64,000 nt of DNA from Klebsiella phage vB_KM5a1-KLB31. The translations under genes and the position numbers were made by a program. The stretch's first letter is position 1, and every line of letters starts with the position of its first letter. The notes under the pieces are model-generated. The model saw only the letters and a list, made by a program, of their open reading frames with translations. It made no database searches and was not told the DNA's origin. The stretch lies in the sequence record PP582757.1, one strand, 5' to 3'. Below, one piece after another: positions 20,776-41,374 of the stretch.

Positions 20776-20830
20776 AGTAGTTTGCTGATTGAGTGTACAT
20801 AATACCACACTCAATCAGCGTTGTAAACTG
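20776..20830 (-). promoter_or_regulatory. early promoter stem-loop cassette (CTGATTGAGTGT-loop-ACACTCAATCAG, GTTTAC -35)
   Basis: 12-bp perfect inverted repeat flanking CATAATA (TATTATG on minus), with CAGTTTACAACG as -35 on minus. Confidence 0.55.
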
Positions 20831-39448: not shown

Positions 39449-39815
39449 ACTTAATGAAATTCTTTTTGATCAAATCAATCATAGCTTCAAAGTTGGATTG
39501 ATTGACTTCGATAGTCATTGAAATCAGACCACCTTTATTTGAAACTTCAGAACCTTCTACAACTTCTTCAAAGTAGCAGAATTCTTCTGAGCAAAGCTCG
39601 AAGTAATCGTCACCACTATCATCAGAACGATAGATTTCGCCATTCTTAGTGCGAATTTTGTTCACGAAAGACCCATCACAGAAGCTTGTATCAAGAACAG
39701 TGAATGTTCCTCCACCTTCTTCAATCAGGTTAACCATGTGTTCATTGTTACTGTTTTCATCAATGAATTGCTGGCGGAGTGTTGGGATTAAACGGTATAC
39801 TTTGCCTTCTTTCAT
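39447..39815 (-). CDS. hypothetical protein
   Basis: 122-aa acidic ORF. Confidence 0.45.
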   Translation of the reverse strand: MKEGKVYRLIPTLRQQFIDENSNNEHMVNLIEEGGGTFTVLDTSFCDGSFVNKIRTKNGEIYRSDDSGDDYFELCSEEFCYFEEVVEGSEVSNKGGLISMTIEVNQSNFEAMIDLIKKNFIK

Positions 39816-39825
39816 TTCGGTTTCC

Positions 39826-40089
39826 TCAGTTGCACAGAGCTACAATTTTAGCTTCAAGAGTTTTCATATTTTCGCGATGCAAGTCACGAGTCTTACCTAC
39901 GCCTTCTGGATAAGTTCCATCATAAGTGGAATTCTCATTTCCAGTGGCCAGAATTACGAGATGCCACATCATAGATTCCATGAAAGCGTAATCTTTTAAA
40001 AGAACGCCTTTTTCAATAGCTTTACCACGTTTGGCACGAAGTTTAGACAATTCGTGTGAGCTATGCATATTAAGCCTCGATGCTTTCAA
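39826..40089 (-). CDS. hypothetical protein
   Basis: 87-aa ORF. Confidence 0.4.
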   Translation of the reverse strand: MKASRLNMHSSHELSKLRAKRGKAIEKGVLLKDYAFMESMMWHLVILATGNENSTYDGTYPEGVGKTRDLHRENMKTLEAKIVALCN

Positions 40090-40291
40090 GAGTTTCAGCT
40101 TTCATTTCAGGGTCCATACCGACCATGTACTCAGCACGAAGATAATCTTCGATAGTGCAGATGTCACCTTCGATTGTGACCTGAGAATCAATCCAACCAT
40201 GTTCACAAGCAACTTCTTTCAGTTTGTAACGCTCAAGGCAGGTTTCGTTGAAGTATTCATAATCACATACGCTTAAAGTAATACGAGCCAT
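40070..40291 (-). CDS. hypothetical protein
   Basis: Start at the internal MARITLSV (40291), because a promoter cassette occupies 40292-40350. Confidence 0.4.
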   Translation of the reverse strand: MARITLSVCDYEYFNETCLERYKLKEVACEHGWIDSQVTIEGDICTIEDYLRAEYMVGMDPEMKAETLESIEA

Positions 40292-40350
40292 TTTTGTATC
40301 TCCAGTTTGTTGGTGTAGGAGCATAATAACCTGTTTTAAAGTCGTTGTAA
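40292..40350 (-). promoter_or_regulatory. early promoter stem-loop cassette
   Basis: TTGTTGGTGTAGGAGCATAATAACCTGTTTTAAAGTCGTTGTAAACAC. Confidence 0.55.
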
Positions 40351-40372
40351 ACACCTTTGTGCAAAACCCCCT

Positions 40373-40435
40373 AATGGCACATATAAGTTACATTATCCGC
40401 AAAAAGTGGGCTTAATGTAACTTATATGTGCCATT
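40373..40435. repeat. perfect 23-bp inverted repeat (AATGGCACATATAAGTTACATTA / TAATGTAACTTATATGTGCCATT) with a 17-nt spacer
   Basis: Arms 40373-40395 and 40413-40435 are exact reverse complements. Lies between the gene 32 terminator and the next early promoter. Confidence 0.8.
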
Positions 40436-40440
40436 AACAA

Positions 40441-40470
40441 AAATGGGAACCACTAGGGTTCCCATTCATT
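40441..40470 (-). terminator. gene 32 intrinsic terminator GGGAACC-ACTA-GGGTTCCC (copy 2, identical to 22262-22292)
   Basis: Strong GC stem plus T-run immediately 3' of gene 32. Confidence 0.65.
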
Positions 40471-40471
40471 A

Positions 40472-41374
40472 TTACAGACCAGCTAACAGGTCATCCAGAC
40501 CATCGTCGTCACCACCAGCTTTTACACCGGTATCTTCAACATCTGGAGTGCTTGGTTTGGAGCTAGTGAACTCGGCCATTTCTTTATCGAAACCGTCCAG
40601 TTCTGCACCCATTGCATCAGCTTTAGAAGCCGCTACAGAAGCAGCACCACCAAGAGCGGCCGTACCCATTACCTGAGCAAATTTCTTCTGGTTATCTTCC
40701 AGAGATTTGAACTTAGCCAGTTCCTGCAGGTCACCCATGTCTTCCATCAGTTTCTTCTGAACTGCTTCGTCATCGATACCTGGGATTTCTGACTGATTCA
40801 GGAATTTGGAGTCGTCGTAGTTTTTGAAGCCACCGACCATTTTGCATTTCAGTGCGAAGTTAGCACCTTCATAGACACAAGTCACGTCAACTGGAGTTTC
40901 ACCAATCTCAGTATCAACTTCAACCATCTGGTTAATTTTGTCCATGATTTTCTGACCGAAACGATATTTGAATACTTTACCTTCATTAGCAGGAACAGCA
41001 GGGTCTTTAACAACCAGGATGTTAGCCCAGAAAGAAGTTTTACGTTTCAGCAAACGGTATTCTGCTTCATTGGTGTTGAATGAATCATGCTTGTTCAGGT
41101 GAGCACACACTGGGCAAGATTCGAAATCACCGTGAGTAGAAGTACAGTTTTCAATATACCATTTACCATTTTTCTTGAAGCCGTGGTTAACCAGTTTCAG
41201 GAATGGAGACGGGTTTGCTTCGTTTTTAGAAGGCAGGAAGCGAATCACAGCACTACCAACACCGTCGGTATCTTTCAGTTTCCACTCGTTCTTATCATCA
41301 TCATAAGAACCTTTACCACCTTTCATTGCGGACAGTTGAGCCTGAAGTTCTGCTGGGTTTTTGCGCTTAAACAT
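40472..41374 (-). CDS. 32: single-stranded DNA-binding protein gp32
   Basis: Collinear with T4 gp32 as I recall it ([44 protein letters not shown] zinc site, [49 protein letters not shown], acidic C-terminus DDLL). Confidence 0.95.

Follow-up and report, generated by a model that had tools for sequence, protein, structure and literature searches.

The intergenic region downstream of gene 32 in Klebsiella phage vB_KM5a1-KLB31 contains a 65-bp palindrome, two perfectly complementary arms around a 17-nt spacer, that is conserved in sequence, geometry, and position across two genera of T4-like phages. It was found in a stretch of 64,000 nucleotides of this phage (sequence record PP582757.1), here called the window. 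The palindrome is a conserved intergenic cis-element with template-switch dynamics and constitutes an extra, undescribed part of a cassette of the promoter-early stem-loop (PeSL) type known from T4-type phages (Arbiol et al. 2010, PMC2839356; Comeau et al. 2014, PMC4122927). From its sequence pattern, we infer that the element is functional and that it is read as DNA, not as RNA. With a probability of roughly 0.4, it is a two-fold symmetric cis-site, in duplex or cruciform state, to which a dimeric or tetrameric protein would bind at the boundary between gene 32 and the following early transcription unit.

A repeat search of the window showed that the arms are 24 nt long and 100% complementary (coordinates and sequences are listed in Table 1). 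The preliminary description of this locus had given 23 bp for the perfect repeat; the repeat and its 17-nt spacer were recovered, and the arms proved to be one pair longer. The palindrome is by far the longest hairpin-type inverted repeat of the window, where the runner-up perfect repeat reaches 13 bp. Based on the base composition of the window, 3e-8 perfect hairpin repeats of 24 bp are expected by chance per 64 kb, and none of 100 shuffles of the sequence contained a match to the arm, which agrees with the earlier statement that the repeat is far beyond chance. As single-stranded DNA, either strand is predicted to fold with about −24 kcal/mol (z = −9 to −9.7). The spacer adds a weak mini-stem of 4–5 bp with a T5 loop on the transcribed strand in the DNA folds.

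All local genes lie on the minus strand. In transcriptional order, gene 32 is followed by its intrinsic terminator, the palindrome, a linker (AGGGGGTTTT), an early promoter, a Shine-Dalgarno sequence, and frd.3. Gene names were taken from the annotation of Edwardsiella phage PEi20 (Kanagawavirus), which is 98.6% identical to the window here. Both the coordinates and this annotation place the palindrome in the non-coding gap from the gene 32 terminator to the following early promoter, the setting given in the preliminary description. According to a terminator scan, the gene 32 terminator is the sole terminator-like site in 40000–40800, and T4 and other T4-like phages have a terminator of the same type after gene 32.

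A sensitive blastn search with the element returned 24 phage records, all of which belong to Kanagawavirus or Winklervirus. The carriers in Kanagawavirus are Edwardsiella phages PEi20 and PEi26, Enterobacter phages Entb_45, Q7622, CIP9, IME523, MY742, and ZX14, and Kosakonia phage 305; those in Winklervirus are Serratia phages CHI14, CBH8, X20, and LC53, Erwinia phages Virsaitis27, Vettismorki, and Gravdalen, and Kosakonia phage Kc304. Three additional metagenomic T4-like contigs and seven SRA-derived assemblies of PEi20-like phages also carry the palindrome. Every carrier has it in the same position, with the gene 32 terminator on one side and the following early promoter on the other, without empty-site polymorphism, and it does not lie at a synteny breakpoint, the site being shared by the two genera. 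The first downstream gene of Winklervirus differs from frd.3. The papers on CHI14 and LC53 (PMC5449768, PMC10132071) do not mention the palindrome.

T4 lacks the repeat, and its terminator abuts the homologous promoter region (TTTTTTCACAAAACGGTTTACA). Across diverse T4-like phages, of which 30 gene 32 loci were compared, the usual layout consists of the stop codon, the terminator, a T-run, 10–30 nt, and GTTTACA. Neither the long repeat nor an analogous hairpin was found in these loci outside Kanagawavirus and Winklervirus, which covers about 20 lineages besides T4. A search of other T4-like genomes, as proposed in the preliminary description, thus places the arms in two genera only. Because the palindrome is absent from T4 and the other ∼20 lineages, the sequence comparison shows it to be a lineage-specific insertion of ∼65–85 bp into a terminator–promoter cassette of the PeSL kind.

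Conservation was scored as the number of invariant columns over 17 aligned genomes. The two arm cores (ATGGMACATATAWGTTAC) have 16 of 18 and 15 of 18 invariant columns, compared with 6 of 7 in the −35 box, 5 of 6 in the −10 box, 8 of 16 in the terminator stems, 3 of 17 in the promoter spacer, and 0 of 17 in the palindrome's own spacer. By this measure, the arm cores match the promoter hexamers in invariance and surpass the adjoining terminator stem in conservation (p = 0.006 for arms versus terminator stems, with bases as the unit). Between the genera, the arms differ at one or two of 18 positions. When the window is compared with CHI14, one arm differs at 1 of 18 positions, and the spacer and promoter spacer together differ at 19 of 34 (∼55%; Fisher p = 3e-4). 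Length is as constant as sequence: all 13 distinct variants are identical in length, with no insertion or deletion within the 65 bp across two genera. The centers of the arm cores (alignment columns 15 and 57) lie at a fixed distance of 42 bp, corresponding to about four helical turns.

This conservation bears on the explanation that the palindrome is a neutral by-product of template switching, that is, an inverted duplication of a promoter-proximal segment that is kept perfect by quasi-palindrome correction. Template switching creates, lengthens, and homogenises inverted repeats and inverts their spacers (PMC8604942, PMC8794818). A possible precursor is found in Klebsiella phages Marfa and pzk-kv8 (Marfavirus), which have a single arm-like segment at the homologous place (ATGAAAAGTAAAAGTTACATTA/AGGGTTTACA). 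This solo segment (ATGAAAAGTAAAAGTTACATTAAG, Marfa locus 272–345) directly abuts the −35 box and shares with the window arm and the first two spacer bases an exact run of 13 nt (chance 8e-5) and 19 of 26 positions overall. The arm also loosely resembles the promoter's own upstream and −35 segment (GCACA-N5-GTTACA versus GCACA-N5-GTTTACA). It is plausible that a promoter-proximal segment was duplicated and an inverted copy then produced by template switching; alternatively, the Marfavirus segment is possibly a remnant from which one arm was lost. As an account of the present-day element, however, neutrality is unlikely. Arm-to-arm conversion does not hold back the divergence of separate lineages, yet the arms changed at 1–2 of 18 positions against ∼55% at unconstrained ones. 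The 65 bp remained free of insertions and deletions, while the flanking G-run and T-run vary in length among carriers. Furthermore, long perfect palindromes are normally prone to deletion, yet this one was lost in no carrier lineage, except possibly in Marfavirus.

The substitutions within the arms follow a distinct pattern. Among the 24 arm pairs, 17 never vary, four changed on both sides, and none shows a one-sided change with pairing kept. Three of the four double changes are of the transversion type (C:G to A:T once, A:T to T:A twice), G-U or G-T states do not occur among the pairs, and the existing mismatches are G.A, T.T, and A.A. Such concerted substitutions are the pattern expected of templated copying between the arms, not of stepwise RNA compensation via wobble pairs.

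The same pattern is relevant to an RNA hairpin on read-through transcripts, which might act as an RNase III substrate, a pause site, or an exonuclease barrier and uncouple the gene 32 mRNA, which is abundant and long-lived, from the downstream early genes. Read-through RNA would form a perfect 24-bp helix with a U5-capped apical mini-stem. RNase III substrates need roughly 20 bp of double-stranded RNA, and the predicted helix, if transcribed, exceeds this length. RNA folding of the whole minus-strand intergenic region predicts the terminator hairpin plus the long hairpin (−63 kcal/mol, z = −6.3). Moreover, the palindrome always follows gene 32, although the downstream gene varies between the genera, and the T5/U5 orientation is kept in all lineages but one despite demonstrable inversion. 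However, the palindrome lies where the locus is transcribed least, behind a canonical strong terminator and ahead of the promoter that follows, and the arms lack G-U intermediates, show mostly transversions and non-wobble mismatches, and are conserved in sequence well beyond pairing needs. The common allele of the mini-stem has the weaker pairing on the transcribed strand (A.C) and the better one on the opposite strand (G.T), phages with a flipped A5 loop are viable isolates, and no Rfam family matches. An RNA processing hairpin, which the preliminary description had listed, is therefore a possibility that we regard as doubtful in view of substitution pattern and position.

Direct traces of arm pairing come from the spacer. 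Read along the transcribed strand, the arms flank TCCGCAAAAAGTGGGCT in PEi20, whereas they flank AGCCCACTTTTTGCGGA or a closely similar spacer in the window and in all relatives except PEi26. The PEi20 spacer is the exact reverse complement of that in the window, and arms and flanks are identical. The alignment of both phages over 3.9 kb contains 53 differing sites, 11 of which represent this single inversion; the sequences are otherwise ∼99% identical. PEi26 is flipped as well, but its spacer (TCCGCAAAAAGTGGACT) differs from that of PEi20 and corresponds to an exactly inverted AGTCCACTTTTTGCGGA, the allele of the Enterobacter phages (AGTCCAC...). All seven SRA-derived assemblies have the spacer orientation of the window. 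Although the spacer diverged between the genera, partial dyad symmetry and the T5 run on the transcribed strand were kept in both.

At the nearest informative flanking sites (40658, 40559, 40371/40370, and 40190), the window and PEi20 stand against PEi26 and the outgroups. The flip itself groups PEi20 with PEi26, in conflict with these sites. The distribution suggests at least two inversions in a clade that is <3% diverged, or one inversion and a very short exchange through the arms. An exactly reverse-complemented spacer in phages that are almost identical is the signature of exchange between the arms and shows that they interact in vivo at the DNA level. The known mechanism of such a flip is replication template switching or intramolecular exchange in a hairpin or cruciform. 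T4 polymerase is reportedly the classical system of quasi-palindrome templated mutation (Ripley's rIIB work). The idea of interacting arms in a cruciform, raised in the preliminary description, is supported by the inversions in PEi20 and PEi26 as far as the interaction is concerned; the cruciform itself is a predicted structure.

Interacting arms would also be a property of a structure-driven recombination or replication hot spot next to the rnh, 59, and 32 cluster. There, a cruciform or lagging-strand hairpin would be cut by endonuclease VII (gp49) or gp46/47, and the break would seed recombination-dependent replication. The intramolecular arm interaction recorded in the spacer, the very stable DNA hairpin, the uniqueness of the site in the genome, and the presence of genes for gp49, gp46, and gp47 in PEi20 are in line with this idea. 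So is the location: according to the twin-domain model, negative supercoiling builds up in the DNA that precedes an active promoter. A role of structure only, however, leaves the invariance of the arm sequence and the absence of insertions and deletions unexplained, and the nearby mosaic boundaries fall at promoter cassettes, not at the palindrome. T4, the model of recombination-dependent replication, has no such element at this locus, and the connection to T4 recombination-dependent origins made in the preliminary description is therefore not sustained. We consider a hot spot improbable.

We favor a symmetric cis-site that is recognized as DNA because the arm cores are conserved beyond pairing needs and the geometry is fixed, with no base gained or lost in two genera and the cores 42 bp apart. 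Further reasons are that an inverted spacer with untouched arms is tolerated in viable isolates, that the palindrome occupies, between a complete terminator and the promoter that follows, the spot with the least transcription, and that its substitutions occurred without wobble intermediates. Conserved dyad half-sites at a fixed, helically phased spacing are features of symmetric operators. Relative to the early promoter, the symmetric site would span approximately −55 to −120, where a dimeric or tetrameric protein of phage or host would bind sequence-specifically to the duplex or to an extruded cruciform. The bound site would then set or insulate activity where the gene 32 unit, which is expressed very strongly, gives way to the early unit downstream. 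Template switching would keep the arms symmetric and now and then flip the center. A site for a dimeric regulator was among the roles listed in the preliminary description; it fits the conservation and the fixed 42-bp core spacing, but no protein was identified.

Several observations weigh against a symmetric protein-binding site. No candidate for the cognate protein was identified and no second site was found genome-wide, whereas regulators usually have several, and a half-site of 18 bp is unusually long for an operator. The difference between arms and terminator stems loses significance when pairs are taken as the unit (p = 0.05), and the terminators used in this comparison may not be orthologous. 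The count of at least two inversions assumes that no recombination took place within ∼125 bp, and T4-like phages recombine very often. Finally, the T5 loop is on the transcribed strand in all lineages but PEi20/PEi26. This near-universal orientation hints at a strand-specific single-stranded form, either RNA or single-stranded DNA, whereas a duplex protein site would not need T5.

The palindrome was also sought in larger sequence collections. No bacterial or archaeal genome among 185,579 has the paired-arm pattern. The 17-nt arm core gave 33 solitary matches in 2.9 million viral contigs, all in unrelated contexts and about as many as estimated by chance. A metagenome scan with the full element yielded one true homologue and otherwise unrelated ACATATATGT iterons. 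The contigs with these iterons contain dense AACATATATGTT and GTAACATATATGTTAC palindromic iterons and were matched only because the Winklervirus arm contains ACATATATGT. In the whole PEi20 genome and the window, there is no second half-site with up to 3 mismatches of 17 and no other perfect hairpin repeat longer than 13 bp.

These scans concern the possibility of a miniature inverted-repeat transposable element (MITE), a non-autonomous 65-bp element with 24-bp terminal inverted repeats at TA, or of a site-specific invertible switch in which a recombinase flips the spacer and turns the internal promoter-like site (GTTACA-18-GATAAT) toward frd.3 or gene 32. The terminal repeats are perfect, TA is present on both sides in the Edwardsiella-phage type, the palindrome is an insertion relative to T4-type cassettes, and the whole element, or its spacer, is found in both orientations. 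Moreover, the GATAAT of the −10-like box spans the junction between spacer and arm, and spacer inversion moves it to the opposite strand. However, the palindrome is a single-copy sequence that is absent from other contexts in viral, metagenomic, and bacterial collections; it occupies the same site in two genera without empty-site polymorphism among carriers, and Winklervirus has not conserved the TA flanks. MITEs and transposon ends occur as several copies in varied contexts with target-site duplications, whereas here no further copy was found in these collections beyond roughly chance-level half-site matches, and TA flanks are confined to some carriers. Nor is there an adjacent transposase or recombinase gene as in fimS/hin-type switches, the neighbors being gene 32, frd.3, and small open reading frames without recombinase domains. 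A 17-bp spacer is too short for recombinase-mediated synapsis of its flanking sites. The internal promoter-like site is itself not conserved, its −10 box being GATAAA in Enterobacter-phage types and GCTTAT in Winklervirus, and it is probably non-functional. A MITE or recombinase-driven switch is thus highly improbable.

A dedicated site in the extruded form appears very unlikely as well. It could be an entry point, specific in both structure and sequence, for replication or recombination proteins by 59/32, or a micro-switch that reorients the internal promoter without a recombinase. In the latter version, hairpin-mediated spacer inversion would turn GTTACA-18-GATAAT between the direction of frd.3 and antisense to gene 32.

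Several other identities were considered and rejected. A dispersed repeat or mobile element is not compatible with the viral, metagenome, bacterial, and PEi20 genome-wide scans. A coding function was dismissed as well: the only open reading frame, 13 codons within the arm (ATGGCACAT...TAA), has no Shine-Dalgarno sequence and is mirrored on the other strand by symmetry. MY742 is the one relative in which an open reading frame (33 amino acids, on the opposite strand) is annotated here. The palindrome is therefore neither part of a conserved coding region in any relative nor the end of a known or dispersed mobile element, the two identities that the preliminary description had named as incompatible with its account. 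The best hits in Rfam 15 reach at most 22.5 bits against thresholds of 54–200 and are generic or chance matches to miRNA precursors. A second or bidirectional intrinsic terminator was rejected because no T-run adjoins the stem on either strand; the stem, which has a G+C content of ∼30% together with its spacer, is followed by AGGGGG, and TTTT begins 6 nt past it. By eye, TGGCAC-N5 was seen, but the TTGC of a sigma-54 site does not follow it; this was treated as a coincidence, and no consensus for IHF, CRP, or LexA was seen. A DnaA-box-like sequence (TTATCCGCA) is present at the arm–spacer junction (40392–40400, plus strand), and a perfect TTATCCACA occurs in the Entb_45 spacer; both are absent in Winklervirus and are probably coincidental.

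Table 1. Features of the gene 32–frd.3 intergenic region and the flanking genes in the window
Feature	Coordinates	Strand	Description
Gene 32	40472..41374	−	Single-stranded DNA-binding protein, 300 amino acids, Pfam PF08804; constant upstream neighbor in all carriers
Gene 32 intrinsic terminator	∼40438..40467	−	TGGGAACC-CTAGT-GGTTCCCA, then TTTTTG; 1–2 nt upstream of the palindrome
Palindrome arm, gene 32 side	40413..40436	5′ arm on transcribed strand	TAATGTAACTTATATGTGCCATTA
Spacer, 17 nt	40396..40412		Plus strand TCCGCAAAAAGTGGGCT; transcribed strand AGCCCACTTTTTGCGGA; inverted in PEi20/PEi26
Palindrome arm, promoter side	40372..40395	3′ arm on transcribed minus strand	TAATGGCACATATAAGTTACATTA; conserved core TGGMACATATAWGTTAC
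Weak promoter-like site inside the palindrome	40392..40421	−	GTTACA-18-GATAAT, 9/12 consensus matches
Conserved linker	40353..40371	−	GGGGGTTTTGCACAAAGGT, between palindrome and −35 box
frd.3 early sigma-70-type promoter	40323..40352	−	GTTTACA-17-TATTAT, 10/12 consensus matches
frd.3	40070..40291	−	73 amino acids, Pfam PF05798; downstream neighbor in Kanagawavirus

The linker between the palindrome and the −35 box is conserved as well, with 12 of 21 columns invariant and the AGGGG motif in 17 of 17 sequences. Its 3′ part has a homologue in T4, in the segment that precedes the −35 box of the frd.3 promoter (TTTTTTCACAAAACG). The frd.3 promoter is one of 15 GTTTAC-type promoters in the window, many of which share the motif CTACACCAACA in the 5′ untranslated region. 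Seven of the 15 feature a perfect inverted repeat of 7–13 bp that straddles the −10 box (minus strand, −35 G at 20828, 26446, 29223, 39447, 57190, 60632, and 61826). In these repeats, the left arm falls within the promoter spacer, and the right arm covers roughly +1 to +12 (e.g. 20784–20796/20807–20819). The frd.3 promoter at 40352 does not possess such a repeat.

The genes around the palindrome vary among the relatives. An open reading frame of 80 amino acids (39826–40069) is located between frd.3 and frd.2 in the window, PEi20, and PEi26; the Enterobacter-phage Kanagawaviruses do not have it, and frd.2 directly follows frd.3. The frd.2 open reading frame (39450–39820 in the window) is a module that was swapped as a whole: PEi26 shares its allele with the SRR24146891 contig, and the window shares its allele with PEi20 and SRR15674967. 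The boundaries of this module coincide with promoter cassettes, as predicted by PeSL-type modular shuffling. On the other side of gene 32, the SRR24146891 contig contains an open reading frame of 222 amino acids (820–1488) without Pfam match between genes 59 and 32. This is the place of the homing endonuclease gene segG in T4, and CHI14 has segD between 59 and 33. In the locus of Serratia phage LC53, the 3′ end of gene 32 is duplicated in tandem over 77 bp (291–390; GATATGTAATAATGATGGGAGAC at 291 and 368), and the annotated gene 32 of LC53 ends at the first copy.

T4-type phages are among the best-studied genomes, and non-coding cis-elements outside T4 have hardly been charted. The palindrome stands out by an unusual combination of properties: it is unique in the genome, its arms are conserved at the level of promoter boxes, its geometry is fixed, it marks the boundary of the most heavily expressed replication gene, and it holds a natural record of arm pairing. 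Should the palindrome prove to be a protein or cruciform site, the known signals of T4-like phages would be extended by a new one for regulation or replication, and the 18-bp arm core would provide a handle for isolating the binding factor. Even on the most conservative reading, the locus offers a clean natural phage example of a template-switch spacer inversion with concerted arm evolution. It also calls for caution with assemblies and phylogenies, in which 11 clustered apparent substitutions represent one event.

Several known systems resemble the palindrome in part. The Correia elements of Neisseria are short bacterial MITEs. They share with it terminal inverted repeats of ∼25 bp, TA flanks in some carriers, an intergenic location by promoters and terminators, and the occurrence in two orientations. 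The palindrome differs in being single-copy, fixed in site, and much shorter (65 bp) and in having no cognate transposase. The oriS of herpes simplex virus is a palindromic origin core with symmetric initiator sites and is likewise a unique, AT-rich, hairpin-capable palindrome with conserved arms and a variable center near replication genes. In contrast to oriS, the palindrome has no known initiator protein, and origins of the T4 type act via promoter-derived R-loops. RNase III hairpins such as those of the T7 R1.1 type and lambda sib are similar in forming a long, near-perfect helix 3′ of a gene and between transcription units; the palindrome would give double-stranded RNA of more than 20 bp if transcribed. 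It is located, however, behind a separate, complete intrinsic terminator and lacks wobble covariation.

The closest relation by location is to the PeSL cassettes, which are defined by a terminator stem-loop, a sigma-70-like early promoter, a Shine-Dalgarno sequence, and a start codon (PMC4122927). The surrounding locus conforms to this definition with a GTTTAC-type promoter, and both parts directly abut in the T4 homologue. As in PeSL systems, the module of promoter and 5′ untranslated region (CTACACCAACA) recurs in the window, and nearby gene swaps are bounded by such cassettes. The palindrome itself is not the PeSL stem-loop but an extra part between this stem-loop and the promoter. Whereas the PeSL stem is GC-rich and comprises 7–11 bp, the palindrome stem is AT-rich, comprises 24 bp, and is single-copy and conserved in sequence, without a T-run. 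The terminator scan detected a GC-rich stem with a T-run only at the gene 32 hairpin. PeSLs occur in multiple copies in hyperplastic regions, and the palindrome was found as a single copy in the window and the rest of the PEi20 genome.

With respect to its dynamics, the palindrome is comparable with chloroplast hairpin-loop inversions and the quasi-palindrome mutagenesis of T4 rIIB. Close relatives with identical arms carry spacers that are exact reverse complements of each other, and the arm substitutions are concerted (four both-sided, none one-sided), as expected of a template-switch site. The exactly reversed spacer between near-identical genomes and the concerted arms are shared with the small inversions associated with hairpins (PMC8604942, PMC8794818), and the conflict between the distribution of the flip and the flanking markers may mean that inversion recurs here or that a short patch was exchanged by recombination. 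Known cases, however, are mutational events at arbitrary repeats, whereas the repeat downstream of gene 32 appears to be under purifying selection at the sequence level across two genera, and the inversion is therefore best viewed as a side-effect of a conserved element.

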